Sequence record: NC_041877.1
Reading direction: 5' to 3' (one strand)
DNA length: 64,000 nucleotides
DNA from: Pseudomonas phage SM1
Positions 22,283-63,719 of this stretch are shown here, in pieces. Below the pieces are notes generated by a model that did not search any database, had not been told where the DNA came from, and worked only from the letters and a program-made list of their open reading frames with translations. Every line of letters begins with the position of its first letter. Position 1 is the stretch's first letter. A program made the position numbers and the translations under genes.

Positions 22283-22306
22283 TGCAAGCGTTTGCACGGA
22301 GATACT

Positions 22307-22867
22307 ATGACCATTCTTTCCTATACCCGTCTTTGCGAAGTAGTGGACCGGGGCTATCTTAGTGGCCTTGAGGATCGGAGCCAGATAAACGCTGCAAGCA
22401 TAGACGTTCGTCTGGGTTGCACCTTTCTAGTAGAAGACGCACCTTTCGACGAGGACTATTTCACAGAACCTCCTTTGCTGAATGTAGATTTGGCGGCCAG
22501 GGAATCTGTGTGTTTCAGGGAACATAAGGGACGGATCAGGCTGGAGCCAATGGAATTTGTACTGGCCCATACTGTGGAGCAGTTTAACCTCCCGGACTGG
22601 TTATCCTGTGAATTCTCATTGAAGTCCTCCATCGCCAGGAATGGCTTGGAGCACCTCAACGCGTGTTGGGTGGATGCCGGGTTCAGTAGCTCGGTACTCA
22701 CCCTTGAACTGAAGAACATGACCCGTCATCATGCGCTGGTGCTAAGGCCCGGTATGCTGATCGGGCAGCTCAAGTTCTTCGAGCATGAACCGGTGCCGGA
22801 AGAGCAGAGCTATCGCAATCGCGGTCGCTACAACGGTGATGCTTCGGTGAGCACTATCAAACCGTGA
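22307..22867 (+). CDS. dcd: dCTP deaminase family protein (dUTPase superfamily)
   Basis: SIDVRLG, RSSIARNGLEHL...DAGFSSSVLTLELKN, LRPGMLIGQL align along the length of bacterial dCTP deaminase. Confidence 0.75.
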   Translation: MTILSYTRLCEVVDRGYLSGLEDRSQINAASIDVRLGCTFLVEDAPFDEDYFTEPPLLNVDLAARESVCFREHKGRIRLEPMEFVLAHTVEQFNLPDWLSCEFSLKSSIARNGLEHLNACWVDAGFSSSVLTLELKNMTRHHALVLRPGMLIGQLKFFEHEPVPEEQSYRNRGRYNGDASVSTIKP

Positions 22868-22882
22868 GCAAAGGAGTAACAC

Positions 22883-23698
22883 ATGGCTAAAGGTGAACAG
22901 GGCAAAGCTCGAAACGGTAGCCGTAAAAATCGCCGCGATGACGATGTGATGCGGGATGACTTCGAGGCCAGAATGGAGGGGCCCGTAAAGAAGTCTTGGA
23001 CATTGCATGATCTGGTACCGCTGGAGCCGGGTTCGGATAACCAGCGTGCGGCTATCGAGGCCTACTGCCAAGGTGACCATCTCGCCATGCTCGGCTCTGC
23101 CGGGGCGGGCAAGACTACCTTAGCGTGCTATCTGGCAGCAGGGTCTTTAGTGAGGAATGAGGTTGAGAAAATCATCCTTGTTCGTTCTGCCGTAGAGCAG
23201 CGAGAGCAGGGCTTCGTACCCGGTACCCAAGAAGAGAAAGATGCCAAATTCGAAGAGCCGTATGTCTCGGCCTTCGGCCACATCTTTGGCCACCCCACCA
23301 CTTACCAGTGGATGAAGCGGCGTGGATTGATCGAGTTCCGTACGACTGGCAATCTACGGAGTCTGAATTTCGATAATGCGGTAGTCGTGGGTGATGAAGT
23401 GCAGAATCTCAATTTCGAGGAGTTGCATACTTTCATAACCCGTCTAGGCCCTCGTTCTAGGTTGATCATGTGCGGAGACCAAGCGCAGTGCGACCTGAAG
23501 CGGTTCGAGATCAAAGGGCTGCCGATTTTCGAGGAGCTGGCAGGCGACTTGCCAAACCTCACAGTTGTGAAGTTCAGCAGACATGACTGCCTTCGTCATG
23601 GATTTGTCCGCGCATGGCTCGGTGCCGTCGAGGACTGGCACAAGCGTCGGGAGGAAACACGACCCGTAGCCGATATAACCACGAAGGTAGCCGGCTAG
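22883..23698 (+). CDS. PhoH-like P-loop ATPase
   Basis: AAGGAG RBS; Walker A MLGSAGAGKTTLA, Walker B VVVGDEVQNL, and GDQAQCDL (PhoH signature GD.xQ.D). Confidence 0.7.
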   Translation: MAKGEQGKARNGSRKNRRDDDVMRDDFEARMEGPVKKSWTLHDLVPLEPGSDNQRAAIEAYCQGDHLAMLGSAGAGKTTLACYLAAGSLVRNEVEKIILVRSAVEQREQGFVPGTQEEKDAKFEEPYVSAFGHIFGHPTTYQWMKRRGLIEFRTTGNLRSLNFDNAVVVGDEVQNLNFEELHTFITRLGPRSRLIMCGDQAQCDLKRFEIKGLPIFEELAGDLPNLTVVKFSRHDCLRHGFVRAWLGAVEDWHKRREETRPVADITTKVAG

Positions 23699-23750: not shown

Positions 23751-24081
23751 TATGGGATACAAACTGTTCAGCACTTTCCAGGCAACGCCTAGTACGCTGG
23801 GAGAAGTAAAGCCTGTTTTCTATCTTGATTTAGCTGGCCCGTCGCATAAATGTTTATGGCGATTTGAGGGGCAAGTGGCATCCTCTGTTTCTCACGATAG
23901 TAATCTACAGTGTGTTGTCGAGGTTGAGTTCGAAGTAGCAAAACCGATCAGCTATTCGGCCCTTGCTCCGTTGGCTATCTCGGTGATGAGGGACGCGATA
24001 CGTGAGGCGGAAGAGGAGCCGGGAGGGTGGGCTGCTATGAAGTGGAGCGTCTATGCCAAACCGCGACACAGCCATGTGTAG
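23751..24081 (+). CDS. hypothetical protein
   Basis: ATG after GGGGAGCGGT; 110-aa ORF; longer ORF-track version 23614 overlaps the phoH-like 3' end. Confidence 0.4.
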
Positions 24082-24109
24082 TTGACACTACTTTTCAAAA
24101 GAGTATTAT
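24082..24109 (+). promoter_or_regulatory. sigma70-like promoter (TTGACA-16-TATTAT)
   Basis: Consensus -35 TTGACA at 24082-24087, 16-nt spacer, -10 TATTAT at 24104-24109; reads into the ORF-free RNA region. Confidence 0.55.
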
Positions 24110-24122
24110 TGAGGGCGTAGAG

Positions 24123-24168
24123 CGGGCTCGGCGTTATTTTCACTACTTCCGTCGAGCCCGTTTTCTCC
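24123..24168 (+). terminator. terminator-like hairpin downstream of the promoter (possible short RNA or attenuator)
   Basis: CGGGCTCG ...22-nt loop... CGAGCCCG followed by TTTTCTCCCC. Confidence 0.4.
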
Positions 24169-24767
24169 CCATACGTGTGGGTCCTGGGTTCAACCTAGCT
24201 GGGCTGAATCAACCGCCTAGGGCTCACACGTATGGCGAGACCCGGTAGCACCGGGGTGATAAACGCAACACGCTACGAAACGTGAGGCTCCCATCCAATG
24301 GTGACATTGGCTAATATGGGGAGTAGGTGGCAGGGCGGAAAGCACGTTAGCGCTGACGTTAGGCACTCCAATTTTGGAATGCGTAGCACGGCCCTGGGAA
24401 GTAGGCACAATGCGCCCGCGCTCTAGTTGTAGCAACAGAGCGCCCACGCGACTAGGCACGTTTGCGTCAATCCCCTCCGAGCAGGTTAGTAGGAGGGTGA
24501 GGGCCTCTACCTCAAAACTCTGCGGATGCGCGCTGGTCGTTGCGGGGGTCGTCTAGAGGCTCTAAACTGTAGCTAGTCGGGGTAGCGTCCGACCGCCATA
24601 TTTGATCTGTTGTTACGGGGTGGCAGGTTGTTCAGGACCTGATGCTCTATGGCTACGTATCGTAGCCACGGCTGAAACACTGAACCGAGGGGCTGGAAGG
24701 GGCCCCTGCCAAACAAATGCAAGCGTTTGCACTCTACGTAGAACGGATCACGGGAGGCAAAACTTGG

Positions 24768-24839
24768 GGGGTGGTAGCTCAGGGGTAGAGCGAGCGTTTT
24801 CTAAACGCTTGGGCGTGGGTTCGAATCCCACTCACTCCA
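24768..24839 (+). tRNA. tRNA-Arg (anticodon TCT)
   Basis: Manual cloverleaf: acceptor GGGGTGG/TCACTCC, D arm GCTC-AGGGGTA-GAGC, anticodon arm AGCGT-TTTCTAA-ACGCT, T arm GTGGG-TTCGAAT-CCCAC, discriminator A; CCA not encoded. Confidence 0.8.
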
Positions 24840-24907
24840 TCTAGAAGTTTAGATGCCACGGAAGGCGTCTACCTAGAATTGCTGTAATCCCTTCAAAGGG
24901 GAAACGT

Positions 24908-24942
24908 GGCGGACGGGGGTTCGATTCCCCCCAGCTCCACCA
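24908..24942 (+). ncRNA. tmRNA (ssrA) 3'-end-like segment: T arm, acceptor 3' strand and encoded CCA
   Basis: GGCGGACGGGGGTTCGATTCCCCCCAGCTCCACCA closely resembles the 3' end of proteobacterial tmRNA (…GGACGCGGGTTCAACTCCCGCCAGCTCCACCA); no canonical tRNA 5' half could be paired upstream. Confidence 0.4.
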
Positions 24943-25266
24943 AAGACATTCTCGGCCAGCACGTTCGTTCCTAGGTGTGAGAAGGTGGCTGCGATACTGC
25001 CGGGTGGTTGCTAGGAACATCATTCGGAAAGTCCAGCTAGAGAGTGTCTCTGATGGGGCTGTTCAGGATTCGACGCCGCGCGTACTTAGCGAAGGCAGCA
25101 AGGAAAGGCGACGCACCTTGACGCGCGCAAATCGATAAACGCCAACGATACTTCGTTCGACGTTCGCCTCGCAGCCTAAACCCCTGCGGAGTGACGGGTA
25201 GCCTCCGGGCTTCCTCCCCCTGCTACGGCTAGTACCCGTAGTTGCCTTGGAACAGAAAGGGGAGGG

Positions 25267-25342
25267 CCTTCGCGTAGGCGCACTGACGGTCGGCACTCCA
25301 CCGCACGCCTGTCAGGGGGCTGTCAGTGCGCCTACGCGAAGG
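25267..25342. repeat. 21-bp perfect inverted repeat (CCTTCGCGTAGGCGCACTGAC / GTCAGTGCGCCTACGCGAAGG) with a 34-nt loop
   Basis: Exact reverse-complement arms at 25267-25287 and 25322-25342. Confidence 0.85.
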
Positions 25343-25665
25343 TAGCGATAGTGACCTTCGATCACAAGTGGATATTTCTGCTACGCAACGGGCAGTGCCC
25401 GTCACTCTGTCTAACCTTCGGGCGAGACTGGCAAGGCCACCACCGGCATAGCCGGCGCTGGAAACAGAAGGTGGCCAATTTCAGGAATCAGTGAGCTAGA
25501 GCCTGCGGGCCATGACTAGGGGACACACTTCAGTGTGGACGGTAATGCTCGCCGGGCGCCGCGCTAGCCTCTCTCGTCAAGAGGTACACCCCAGGGGGGT
25601 AACGTTGACCACCCCGCCGGCTCTAGCTCAGTGATCCCTACCCACACCAGACAGAGGATCGGAAA

Positions 25666-26493
25666 ATGTCTGATGTACTTGAGCCCTTCTATCGGACGGG
25701 CCGCACCACCCGAGCGCTACACTACGTCGCCATGTGCGCGGTCGAAGGCCAGAAGATTGCCTTTCACTGCCCCAATAAAGAGTCTACTTCGCTTAGCGTC
25801 CAAGCTTTCATGGGGCTTCTCTGCGCCTCATTTGTACGTTACGAGGCCAAACAGCTAGACAAGGGATACCTATTCGGTACCCACGAGATCACGGTGATAG
25901 ACGACGTAGGCCGCTCTCGTGGCTCAGTCGCGTTCTTCACATACCGCAACGGCAGTCTAGGGCCTGACGGTAATCACCGGGAGCTTAGCGAATTCAAGAA
26001 CGTCTTCGATCCGTCCTGCTTCGAGCAGGACCCAAGACTGAGGAAGATTCTCTACGCATACCATGCCTTCGACGATCAGAACGAAACCACGACTCCACGC
26101 AACGTGCGCAACGCTATGTCGGCGCAGAAGGGTCTGCGGGGTAACTCCAGCATCCGCGACGACGGTGCGTATTGGGAGCGCCGTATCGTTCGCAAACTCG
26201 CTGAGGCTGGCGTCAAGGATGTTGTACCGGGCAAGAACAAGGTAGACGACATCGGCTATGGCCATCGTTTCTCCATTCCGTTCAATGCGGCCACATCGCT
26301 ATCGATTCCGGACGAAGCAGCCAAAGGCGAGTACCTCCCCGACTGGCAGGCCTGCCTGGGCATCTCCAACGAGCCGCCGGTACACGAGGCCCTGTCCAAC
26401 TTCTCCGAAGACCAAACCGAGAATAACGCTGTGTGCGTGATTCGGGCTATTGTTACTTCCATCCGGGCCCGAATCTTCAAGGCGTTTCCCTGA
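25666..26493 (+). CDS. hypothetical protein
   Basis: RBS GAGGATCGGAAA then ATG; 275-aa ORF; no recognised motif. Confidence 0.5.
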   Translation: MSDVLEPFYRTGRTTRALHYVAMCAVEGQKIAFHCPNKESTSLSVQAFMGLLCASFVRYEAKQLDKGYLFGTHEITVIDDVGRSRGSVAFFTYRNGSLGPDGNHRELSEFKNVFDPSCFEQDPRLRKILYAYHAFDDQNETTTPRNVRNAMSAQKGLRGNSSIRDDGAYWERRIVRKLAEAGVKDVVPGKNKVDDIGYGHRFSIPFNAATSLSIPDEAAKGEYLPDWQACLGISNEPPVHEALSNFSEDQTENNAVCVIRAIVTSIRARIFKAFP

Positions 26494-62336: not shown

Positions 62337-63719
62337 ATGAGTAAGAACCAACGTATTCGTCGGTCCACTGAAGTGGAAGGAAACCTCGTCACGATCAGCA
62401 AACCGGCGTTCATTACCATGTGCAAGAAACCGGCTAACCAGCGTGGTTTCTCTGTACTTCGTTCCGATGGTGACGAGCCGGCGACCTCCAAGCGCGTCCG
62501 CCCGGCTCGGGCCCGCCGTAGCGACACCGCCAATCTCGTGCGTCTGGAGTTCCCGGCAGATTTGACCGAGGAGCAGGTAAAGGAGAGTCTGCAAAGCTTC
62601 GGCCTGGGGGAACTCCAGATCACCCGTAACGAAGGAGAGCCGTGGAAAGCCGTCAATAGTGCAATCGCTTGCACGGACGACGAGCTGGTTGCCCATAAGA
62701 TCACGGAAGATGGAGTAACCGCATTCGTTAAACGTTCCGAAGCGGTTAGCGGAACTCCGGGTAAAAACAAAATCGTGGTCAATGCCATTCGTTTCGACGA
62801 CAAAGATGCGTCGCGAGAAGAAGTCGAAGCATGGCTCGCTGAAAATGGTGTTGACTTCGATGAAAAAGACCTCAACAATTCGTCCGGCAAATTTGTGTTG
62901 CAGCGGGCGGAGTTGGAGGATGGGGTAGAAACTCGCCAAGTGGAGTTGTCCGAGGGGGTTGTCGCAGTTATTTCGCGAGGTGACTCCCAGGATATTCCGG
63001 CGGGTTTCGTACTGGTCGTGAATGAGTTGGCTTACTCCGGCTACGGCTGGGGGCAGTTGGATTTCAACTCCTACATGGCCGACCGTACTGTTGGTGAGGC
63101 TGTTCGGGATGCGATGTACAACCTCGACAGCGTTATTAACAATATCCTGTTCTGGAACACGGAATTGACGGTAGAGGCGAAAAAGACCTTGGTTACCCGC
63201 AGCGTGAATCAGTTCGCTGAATACGTTAACGGTTTCCTCGACAGCTTGCCGCGCTCGCTGCTGATCCCGGTAACCCCCGAAACAATTTCTGCTCAACGTA
63301 GCGATACCGTCAAGGAGTCCAAAGAGATGAATATGAAGTCCACCCCCACCGCGTATGTAACCAAGGAGGATTTGGCCTCCACCGTCGCCGAGGTGCTGCG
63401 TTCCGAGCGCGAAGCCGAACGTGAGCGTGAGCGTCAGGCTGCTGCCGAAAAAGAGCGCCTGGAGCAGGAAGCGCAAATTCGCCGCAGCGAAACCGAGGAA
63501 GTGGTAAAGGCCGCCGTCCAGCCTCTGCTGCAACAGATCGAAGAGCTGAAGGGCACCACCGTCGTTCGCAGCGGCGAAGAGCCGATCACCAAGCCGCGCA
63601 AGGAAGAAGATGTAACCCGTAACGACGGCAGTGTCTTCTCCGGCATGCTGGGTGACATCCACGGCCTGCGGGACATCAGCGAACTGGAAGACGAAGCCGA
63701 CGAGAGCGGCGACGAGTAA
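62337..63719 (+). CDS. putative scaffolding protein
   Basis: C-terminal coiled-coil REAERERERQAAAEKERLEQEAQIRR and acidic tail DEADESGDE; lies immediately upstream of the capsid gene. Confidence 0.4.
   Translation: MSKNQRIRRSTEVEGNLVTISKPAFITMCKKPANQRGFSVLRSDGDEPATSKRVRPARARRSDTANLVRLEFPADLTEEQVKESLQSFGLGELQITRNEGEPWKAVNSAIACTDDELVAHKITEDGVTAFVKRSEAVSGTPGKNKIVVNAIRFDDKDASREEVEAWLAENGVDFDEKDLNNSSGKFVLQRAELEDGVETRQVELSEGVVAVISRGDSQDIPAGFVLVVNELAYSGYGWGQLDFNSYMADRTVGEAVRDAMYNLDSVINNILFWNTELTVEAKKTLVTRSVNQFAEYVNGFLDSLPRSLLIPVTPETISAQRSDTVKESKEMNMKSTPTAYVTKEDLASTVAEVLRSEREAERERERQAAAEKERLEQEAQIRRSETEEVVKAAVQPLLQQIEELKGTTVVRSGEEPITKPRKEEDVTRNDGSVFSGMLGDIHGLRDISELEDEADESGDE

Follow-up and report, generated by a model that had tools for sequence, protein, structure and literature searches.

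Helices Behind a Two-Piece tmRNA Gene of Pseudomonas Phage SM1 as Probable RNA Modules of a Gene-Free Locus

Introduction

When a phage genome holds a dense cluster of helices in a place without an evident gene, it may be asked whether these helices act in RNA or in DNA, and to what larger unit they belong. This question is raised by positions 25200-25460 of Pseudomonas phage SM1 (record NC_041877.1), of which a stretch of 64,000 nucleotides (nt), hereafter the window, was analysed; all positions refer to this window. In a preliminary description, the segment was noted for a perfect 21-base-pair (bp) inverted repeat, several smaller hairpins, and the lack of an open reading frame (ORF), and was attributed to either a structured noncoding RNA or a DNA cruciform or protein-binding site.

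Comparison with related phages indicates that the flagged helices are, very probably, selected RNA structures of the + strand, rather than DNA elements or the outcome of chance. The idea of a structured noncoding RNA is upheld as regards the helices, which are kept by double compensatory changes, and has to be given up as regards a free-standing gene some 250 nt long: the segment begins where a transfer-messenger RNA (tmRNA) gene has its 3' end and comprises at least four separately evolving modules of a noncoding locus of 1.6 kb. As far as can be judged from sequence, this gene-free locus appears to encode an undescribed, heavily folded RNA, and with the tmRNA and this undescribed conserved RNA locus as context, the region is more interesting than the hairpin alone.

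Sequences Compared

Two sets of relatives were used. The close set consists of five Samunavirus sequences, namely the window and the Pseudomonas aeruginosa siphophages FBPa45, PaMx31, PA_L9, and UF_RH6, which are 98.4-99.6% identical to the window over the region; at 99% identity, no covariation was obtainable from these close relatives. The distant set consists of syntenic assembly contigs (L006-L019), reached via homologs of the flanking PhoH protein, the downstream ORF, and an ORF of 83 amino acids (aa). In these contigs the PhoH protein is 60-69% identical to that of the window, and in every one of them a gap of 0.9-1.1 kb without genes occupies the same syntenic spot, that of L006 containing zero ORFs. 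The gap of the window is a single gene-free interval of ~1.6 kb (24082-25665). Scans of IMG/VR with the inverted-repeat arm, the tmRNA 5' end, the downstream protein, and a conserved 5' block gave no match, and scans of JGI metagenomes and GTDB genomes were likewise without a match, so that the lineage is visible only in GenBank and in Logan/ENA assemblies.

Evidence for Selected RNA Helices

The 21-bp inverted repeat lies, as described earlier, at 25267-25287 and 25322-25342, and forms on the + strand a perfect hairpin (25267-25342) with a 34-nt loop. It exceeds chance: the 21-nt arm has no second copy in the 64 kb even with three mismatches permitted (0 expected in shuffles) and the hairpin folds as RNA with -56.6 kcal/mol (z = -5.6). 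Together with a 27-nt and a 25-nt repeat, it is among the three best long inverted repeats of the 64 kb, all of which fall within 24082-25665. The local hairpins recorded in the preliminary description are likewise all present, namely CTACGG/CCGTAG (25223-28/25236-41), ACGGGC-AGT-GCCCGT (25388-25402), and GGCCACC/GGTGGCC (25436-42/25470-76) around CCGGC-ATA-GCCGG. The nesting of the inverted repeat inside an outer CCTCCCC/GGGGAGG pairing was a misreading: this helix (25213-25219/25259-25265) ends 2 nt before the repeat, so that the two structures are adjacent, and it encloses the CTACGG/CCGTAG hairpin only. The high density of stable helices is confirmed, in that 25180-25665 folds better than all shuffles (z = -4.85 for the + strand and -5.57 for the - strand), but its assumed extent of about 250 nt was too short, as the structure runs on to 25639.

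The statement that no ORF occurs in the segment needs to be qualified, because mechanical ORFs of 41-77 aa overlap it; in UF_RH6, a 126-nt minus-strand ORF is annotated inside the structured region. No ORF is conserved in relatives, however, and indels of 11, 1, and 2 nt separate near-identical strains in the flagged region; these sizes and the lack of a conserved ORF show that the region is non-coding. Among the five Samunavirus sequences, substitutions concentrate in the intervening segment of the tmRNA (24943-25054), and 25180-25665 is near-invariant, the exceptions being one substitution, a 1-2-nt change in a G-run, and an 11-nt deletion in UF_RH6 that falls wholly inside the loop of the 21-bp hairpin.

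Covariation in related phages, the test suggested at the outset, was found in the form of double compensatory changes in nearly every flagged helix. For the small helices, the pairs were anchored by hand where necessary, because the MAFFT alignment had displaced the outer helix of the element referred to below as Hc by one column; taken together, these helices have 9 doubly compensated pairs out of 60, with 6 of 203 cells non-canonical. The long stem behaves differently from an aligned helix, as BLAST of 25272-25387 against the relatives gave no alignment in any of them, yet a long stem is found right after the ...GAGGGCC junction in six lineages, with 20-26 bp, loops of 5 to ~60 nt, and unrelated sequences. 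The stem is 24 bp long in UF_RH6, 25 bp in L006, 21 bp in L014, and 22 bp in L013, where the loop has ~60 nt; it is interrupted in L010 (9+3+8 bp, with a 5-nt loop) and L018 (5+2+14 bp). The z-scores of folding of the junction stems in the relatives range from -4.0 to -8.0. On this comparison of sequences, what is conserved in the junction hairpin is its position and a length of about two helical turns, and not its sequence or loop.

These observations bear directly on the possibility that the inverted repeat works at the level of DNA, as a cruciform, a replication-origin element, or a palindromic protein-binding site. Such a role would be in keeping with arms that are Watson-Crick paired at 21/21 positions without G·U, with the equally good folding of both strands, and with the nucleotide-metabolism genes nearby. 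The arms, however, differ completely between lineages with their pairing kept, and this freedom of the arm sequences to vary argues against a sequence-specific DNA site; a palindromic operator was rejected for the same reason, the arms being unalignable between lineages yet still complementary. Homologous stems contain G·U but few A·C pairs (15:8 over all lineages; 10:3 in the window, L006, and L010), and the smaller flagged helices have conserved G·U pairs, which are those of the + strand. The surrounding RNA genes point to the same strand, since the flanking genes, a transfer RNA (tRNA) gene for arginine, and the tmRNA gene are all encoded on it. At the locus there are no iterons or direct-repeat families, and neither an AT-rich dip nor a GC-skew inflection of the kind expected at a replication origin. 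The cruciform or protein-binding site that had been offered as one of two interpretations is thus highly improbable.

Still less credence, close to none, can be given to a selfish or neutral palindrome resembling miniature inverted-repeat transposable elements or repetitive extragenic palindromes, or to an intrinsic terminator, even though the arms are perfect and long-stem modules are present or absent by lineage. No second copy of the palindrome was found in the window, the phage collection, or IMG/VR, and all lineages have the stem at the same place, the GAGGGCC junction. The short repeat at 25355-25360 is not a target-site duplication, since the 5' arm itself begins with one copy, and the second follows 12 nt after the end of the 3' arm. 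As to termination, a scan of the + strand from 24000 to 25900 found no intrinsic terminator; the loop has 34 nt, and the 3' flank, TAGCGATAG, contains no U-tract.

In a search of Rfam 15, with riboswitches, GOLLD, ROOL, and glnA RNA included, only the tmRNA and the tRNA reach the threshold, and the flagged helices match no family. The remaining matches at E values up to 10 are noise, for example microRNA precursors placed on the bare hairpin.

The Two-Piece tmRNA Gene and Its 3' Border

The gene that precedes the flagged segment was recognized by two types of model. ARAGORN reports a circularly permuted tmRNA at 24850-25270 with the tag ANDTSFDVRLAA; with Rfam, RF04321 (tmRNA_permuted; gathering score 47) reaches 118.6 bits at 24880-25179, and RF01850 (beta_tmRNA; threshold 84) reaches 111.2 bits. 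It follows that the flagged stretch begins inside or directly after a two-piece tmRNA gene, its first ~12 nt being shared with the gene if this ends near 25212. The acceptor piece (24880-24942, + strand), identified by ARAGORN, Rfam, and covariation, contains the P2 5' strands, the T-arm GGGGGTTCGATTCCCCC, the 3' acceptor strand CAGCTCC, the discriminator A, and CCA, its 3' end reading ...GGGGGTTCGATTCCCCCCAGCTCC-A-CCA and finishing at 24942. It is followed by an intervening segment (24943-25054), expected from Rfam and the strain comparison to be excised in maturation, which is ~50 nt shorter in L010 and L018 than in the window. The coding piece (25055-25212) starts with the 5' acceptor strand GGGGCTG and continues with the P2/PK1 region, the tag ORF, a conserved GTGACGGGTAG, and a terminal mini-hairpin, AGCC-TCCG-GGCT. 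The order is therefore permuted, with the 3' acceptor strand upstream of the 5' acceptor strand, and the 7-bp acceptor stem is formed between GGGGCTG (25055-61) and CAGCTCC (24932-38), including the G3·U70 pair, with A and CCA at 24939-42. The tag frame (25141-25179) has an alanine resume codon, encodes the tag ending in LAA, and is then closed by a stop codon.

Permuted tmRNAs also occur in L010 (tag ANDESYGIRAAA; 127 bits with RF04321) and in L018/L019 (tag ANDESYGIRLVA). Across these three tmRNA lineages, 23 of 78 pairs are doubly compensated; in the acceptor stem, three pairs covary and G3·U70 is invariant. The compensated pairs and the fixed G3·U70 together indicate that the tmRNA is under structural selection. 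By its Rfam score, tRNA-Ala-like domain, and tag frame, 24880 to ~25212 is, on sequence grounds, a two-piece tmRNA gene. It has all the sequence hallmarks of the beta-proteobacterial two-piece type (RF01850, RF04321), that is, the acceptor piece before the coding piece, G3·U70, the T-arm, CCA, and the LAA tag. The 3' limit of the coding piece near 25212 is suggested by comparison with relatives, the alignment of PA_L9 with the tmRNA-less L014 giving bounds of ~24876-25212 for the tmRNA module; L006, likewise without a tmRNA, was also used in setting these limits.

None of the four GenBank Samunavirus records examined (FBPa45, PaMx31, PA_L9, UF_RH6) annotates a tmRNA, so that a genus of P. aeruginosa phages in clinical use, and the subject of phage-therapy papers, encodes a ribosome-rescue RNA that has been passed over in these records. 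The tmRNA of the host P. aeruginosa is of the one-piece type, and the presence of a two-piece form in the phage raises the question of what a phage gains from re-tagging stalled host or phage proteins. A one-piece tmRNA that ARAGORN also proposed (24689-24942, tag ATEGVYLELL) overlaps the tRNA-Arg gene, makes use of the acceptor piece a second time, and is regarded as spurious. A hairpin with a 21-nt inverted repeat and a ~80-nt loop, which is absent from Samunavirus, was observed in L010 (7803-7927) and L018 (1981-2099), where it separates the 82-aa ORF from the tmRNA.

Two-piece tmRNAs in phages are already known, with 53 reported among 18,146 phage genomes, nearly all aquatic (Buchholz et al. 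2022, PMC9004378); the supplementary files of that study, in the part available, list neither PaMx31 nor any other Pseudomonas phage. One of the known cases, from the methylophage Melnitz, has a glutamine riboswitch after it (Buchholz et al. 2022, PMC9004378), and the window resembles it in having a structured RNA element after the tag and differs from it in lacking the glutamine riboswitch. By this precedent of a 3' domain, the flagged helices could form a 3' domain of the coding piece in the mature tmRNA, in the place that PK2-PK4 have in one-piece tmRNAs. They follow directly after the tag stop codon, and the CCUCCCC domain at 25213-25265 is restricted to the tmRNA lineages and is better conserved there than the coding piece itself. 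This reading of the helices is nevertheless rather unlikely. The helices are not covered by RF01850 and RF04321, which stop at or just past the tag and terminal hairpin, and most of them are present in tmRNA-less relatives. L006 and L014 have no tmRNA and still have the junction stem, the preceding CCUC/GAGG hairpin, and at least Ha of the hairpins Ha-Hc, which means that the 21-bp hairpin is not a tmRNA domain; the group Ha-Hc tracks the downstream ORF and not the tmRNA.

Modules Flanking the Long Hairpin

The CCUCCCC domain (25213-25265, + strand) is composed of a 7-bp outer helix (25213-19/25259-65), an inner hairpin (25222-28/25236-42), and a near-invariant single strand, TTGCCTTGGAACAGAAA, in which a single substitution was found, in L018. 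It occurs only in the three tmRNA-bearing lineages, with 90% identity to L010 over 62 nt, and in the tmRNA-less relatives a plain GGUCCUC-tetraloop-GAGGGCC hairpin stands in its place. The inner hairpin changes from CUACGG/CCGUAG to CUCAGG/CCUGAG, which amounts to two doubly compensated pairs, with a G·U pair conserved.

On the other side of the long hairpin and a variable linker, three small elements are encoded on the + strand. Ha (25388-25402, ACGGGC-AGT-GCCCGT) has an invariant stem and a variable loop; Hb (25406-25431, GUCU..CC-UUCG-GG..AGAC) shows compensation of C-G to U-A; and Hc (25435-25476) is a three-way element made of the outer helix GGCCACC/GGTGGCC, the hairpin CCGGC-ATA-GCCGG, and a mini-hairpin, CUG-GAAA-CAG. 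The outer helix of Hc reads GGCCACC/GGUGGCC in the window and L006, GCCUCCC/GGGAGGC in L010, and GCCCUCC/GGAGGGC in L018, so that double compensation is seen at three of its seven pairs and all seven remain intact. A common design was noticed in Hc and the CCUCCCC domain: each combines a 7-bp helix with an inner hairpin on the 5' side and a single strand of the form YUGGRAACAGAA(A)GG, they have a 17-nt direct repeat in common (25246-25262 and 25458-25474), and their 3' strands resemble a Shine-Dalgarno sequence. The shared repeat suggests an internal duplication.

Beyond the flagged coordinates, a 27-bp closing stem surrounds a structured insert of 103 nt (25483-25639, + strand). The 27-nt repeat that forms it (25483-25509/25613-25639) is 89% complementary, and in the whole domain 12 of 49 pairs are doubly compensated, compared with 3.1 +/- 1.5 in shuffles (0 of 500 reach this number) and 0-3 in slid registers. 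The stem with its insert is present in the window and, heavily compensated, in L010; in L018 only a 20-bp hairpin closed by a 5-nt loop is left, and L006 lacks the domain. All three lineages in which the stem occurs share a mismatch at its position 4-5. This second long stem thus behaves much like the one at the junction.

A Shine-Dalgarno sequence, GAGGA (25654-58), and an ORF of 275 aa (25666-26493, + strand) follow. In the window, L006, L010, and L018, Ha-Hc, the ribosome-binding site, and the N-terminus of this ORF are conserved as one block, within which Ha-Hc keeps 74-84% DNA identity; the adjacent protein is 35% identical in L006. Ha-Hc is therefore probably best read as the leader of the downstream ORF.

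A wider claim would be that the flagged tract as a whole is a cis-acting leader of the gene at 25666, in which the long stems and their alternative partners constitute a conformational switch, or in which a protein or ligand is bound to control translation. This would account for the conserved block, with the DNA of Ha-Hc better kept than the L006 protein, for a conserved alternative pairing of a kind typical of switches, and for the Shine-Dalgarno-like GGAGG/GGUGG strands that are held in helices with CCUCC/CCACC. It is weakened by the lack of any riboswitch or leader match in Rfam at E values up to 10, by the distance of ~320 nt between the 21-bp stem and the ribosome-binding site, by an alternative helix that is thermodynamically no match for the intact long stem, and by the fact that no known function of the downstream protein suggests a ligand; scans of the neighbouring proteins with Pfam and PHROG gave no functional clue. 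On balance, a switch governing the downstream gene seems improbable.

Three further pairings in this part of the locus were considered and rejected. The long-range helix GAGTGACGGG/CCCGTCACTC (25189-98/25398-407) is perfect in the window only and shows covariation in neither L010 nor L018; a pseudoknot between the near-invariant loop TTGCCTTGG and GGCAAGG 5' of Hc is not kept in L010 and L018; and the masking of the Shine-Dalgarno sequence by the 3' arm of the 27-bp stem would involve 5 bp only, the Shine-Dalgarno sequence being identical in the stem-less L006.

The 5' Half of the Locus

The gene-free locus starts at a strong sigma-70-type promoter-like site (24082-24109, + strand; TTGACA-16-TATTAT, 11 of 12 matches). 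Motifs of the form TTGAC(A/T)-N16-17-TA..AT are aligned at the same place in L006, L014, L010, and PA_L9, and such a motif also occurs in L013. Outside the flagged coordinates and in the same locus, a conserved 5' structured RNA lies at 24110-24740 (+ strand), with a core at 24213-24502 and a hairpin formed by the 25-nt inverted repeat at 24164-24240. The core is present in all syntenic relatives with 72-92% DNA identity, although the PhoH proteins of these relatives share no more than 60-69% of their residues with that of the window, and 39 of 119 pairs predicted by RNAalifold are doubly compensated across five lineages, long-range helices included. No Rfam family matches 24110-24740. That the conserved 5' block GATAAACGCAACACGCTACGAAACGTGA might encode a second tag was considered as well and rejected, as the reading frame is not kept in L006.

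The tRNA-Arg gene (24768-24839, + strand, anticodon TCT), found by ARAGORN, is present in the window, FBPa45, and PaMx31. In PA_L9 and UF_RH6, it is replaced by ~380 bp with an 83-aa ORF (window 24736-24875; L002 2622-3000), and homology to the window restarts at 24876, 4 nt ahead of the tmRNA. This 82/83-aa ORF belongs to a conserved small-protein family, corresponding to the C-terminal part of PHROG 6978, and lies just 5' of the tmRNA or the hairpins in most relatives. A homolog of the 82-aa ORF was also found in a P. cavernicola prophage (L020), in which there is no RNA locus.

The hairpins could also be conceived as the architecture of one large ornate noncoding RNA that extends over most of 24110-25640 and carries the tRNA, the tmRNA, and the small ORF as cargo in the manner of GOLLD and ROOL. 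GOLLD and ROOL are often adjacent to tRNA genes. The locus is like them in being a gene-free, structured, and covarying phage region of at least ~1 kb with tRNA-type genes; the gap is syntenic in all relatives and ORF-less in L006, tRNA or tmRNA genes are embedded in it, and the covarying 5' core occurs in every lineage. It differs in that neither its sequence nor its structure matches GOLLD, ROOL, or another large RNA of Rfam, and it is modular, with an 82-aa protein gene in its middle in most lineages. The modules, moreover, are lost independently, the 27-bp domain in L006 and its inner part in L018, and separate modules fit this pattern better than one RNA, for which the prospects appear slim. 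Possible, and still doubtful, is the suggestion that the 5' half may be a new large phage RNA with the flagged stretch as its 3' modular part. A strongly conserved, covarying 5' core outside the known families is, in any case, a candidate for such an RNA, and it occurs in a phage that can be cultured with its host.

A Possible System of Processing and Refolding

The reading that is preferred here, although held tentatively and at slightly less than even confidence in its full form, regards the flagged helices as + strand RNA modules in a 1.6-kb noncoding transcription unit with processing stems and a refolding step. Transcription would start from the promoter-like site at 24082 and would yield a precursor carrying tRNA-Arg and the two-piece tmRNA, in which the flagged elements would follow in the order of tmRNA mini-hairpin, CCUCCCC domain, 21-bp hairpin, variable linker, and Ha-Hc. 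What the compared sequences show is that the helices exist, covary, stand in this order, and are independent of the tmRNA; transcription, the strand, the enzyme, and refolding are what the model would add. The 21-bp hairpin would be a helix selected for its length, with sequence and loop free to drift, and the long stems would be recognized as double-stranded RNA, most likely by the RNase III of the host, so as to punctuate the precursor between cargo units. Cleavage of the stem would separate the tmRNA, or the message of the 82-aa ORF in tmRNA-less relatives, from the downstream leader and messenger RNA.

The length of ≥ ~20 bp expected of RNase III substrates is found both at the junction (20-26 bp) and at the second stem (20-27 bp). 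RNase III processing hairpins are familiar from the R0.3-R18.5 sites of phage T7, from the N leader and sib of phage lambda, and from the processing stalks of ribosomal RNA operons. The phage sites are resembled by stems of about two turns between functional units, in which the helix is kept over the sequence, and the kept near-basal mismatch of the 27-bp stem recalls the internal loops of the T7 sites. The ribosomal RNA stalk, in turn, is resembled by the 27-bp stem enclosing a structured insert. A difference is that the loops of the junction stems are large and variable (5-60 nt), and cleavage in the present locus is a prediction.

The refolding step is suggested by a short repeat. The sequence CCTTCG at 25355-25360 (+ strand) repeats the 6 nt with which the 5' arm of the hairpin begins and thereby offers an alternative partner for the base of the 3' arm, CGAAGG (25337-42). 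In every lineage, a copy of the 5'-arm start, 6-7 nt long, reappears 4-14 nt after the 3' arm and varies along with the stem, reading CCTTCG in the window, CCATCTG in L010, CCATCT in L018, CCCTTG in L014, and CCTTGC, shifted by one register, in L006. Chance would produce such a copy in ~1% of cases per lineage, and three independent groups have it. The base of the 3' arm consequently has two possible partners, and three segments change together. The long stem is by far the stronger of the two, so that the alternative helix should come into play only once the 5' arm is lost or occupied; after cleavage, CGAAGG would pair with CCUUCG (25355), and the downstream product would refold into a 5'-terminal hairpin. 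To our knowledge, nothing comparable to this conserved repeat of the 5'-arm start beyond the stem is present in the T7 or lambda sites.

Several points count against this processing-and-refolding model. The stem of the window, with 21/21 Watson-Crick pairs and zero G·U, is as would be seen in a DNA-level palindrome or a young duplication; the excess of G·U over A·C is modest at 15:8; and the + and - strands fold equally well. The CCUCCCC domain may be part of the mature tmRNA and not a separate module. The alternative helix of 6-7 bp is far weaker than the long stem, and any role for it is conjectural. Transcription, RNA ends, and cleavage are predicted from the DNA, and a part for RNase III is suggested by analogy, through the length of the stems. 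The comparison, finally, comprises three independent tmRNA lineages and about six lineages in total, which are mostly assembly contigs.

Whatever their function, the flagged hairpins provide a natural case of helices selected for position and length instead of sequence, together with a partner-switching repeat. If the stems act as RNase III-type punctuation, they would illustrate a route by which phages obtain mature tRNA and tmRNA cargo from long noncoding precursors. A bolder proposal, possible and for the present speculative, is that 24110-25640 represents a new class of large ornate phage RNA, consisting of a covarying core of ~290-500 nt, interchangeable cargo (tRNA, tmRNA, or the 82-aa ORF), and length-selected stems with alternative partners that serve as a processing-and-refolding system. 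If true, such a system of stems would be undescribed for phage transcripts.

Neighbouring Genes and Further Observations

The possibility that the flagged stretch mimics a repeat of clustered regularly interspaced short palindromic repeats (CRISPR) and serves as an RNA anti-CRISPR was considered and set aside, as no match to the P. aeruginosa I-F, I-E, or I-C repeats was found within 25% errors, although this is a weak test.

The records of phages BHU-1/15/17 at first resemble natural deletions of the RNA block, an explanation that was rejected because their coding sequences are merely joined by 100 N. Record OL343755 (BHU-1, locus L005), which was examined, has its annotated coding sequences connected by stretches of exactly 100 N each and lacks all intergenic DNA; the other BHU-1/15/17 records (OK638201-3, OL473897, OL622073) have the same gapped match pattern.

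Upstream of the locus, Pfam identifies a dCTP-deaminase-like protein and PhoH at 22292-23698 of the window, genes which are labelled 'minor tail protein' and 'tape-measure protein' in UF_RH6 and BHU, and 'DNA replication protein' in PA_L9. Insertions of the homing-endonuclease type were encountered in relatives: a gene of the MJ0330_N family, of 640 aa and of 1024 aa in L010 (1364-4438), with a faint LAGLIDADG match, and a GIY-YIG ORF between DCD and PhoH in L006 (6899-7393). A further long inverted repeat of the window lies at 63167-63386, with arms of 30 nt that are 80% complementary and 160 nt apart.

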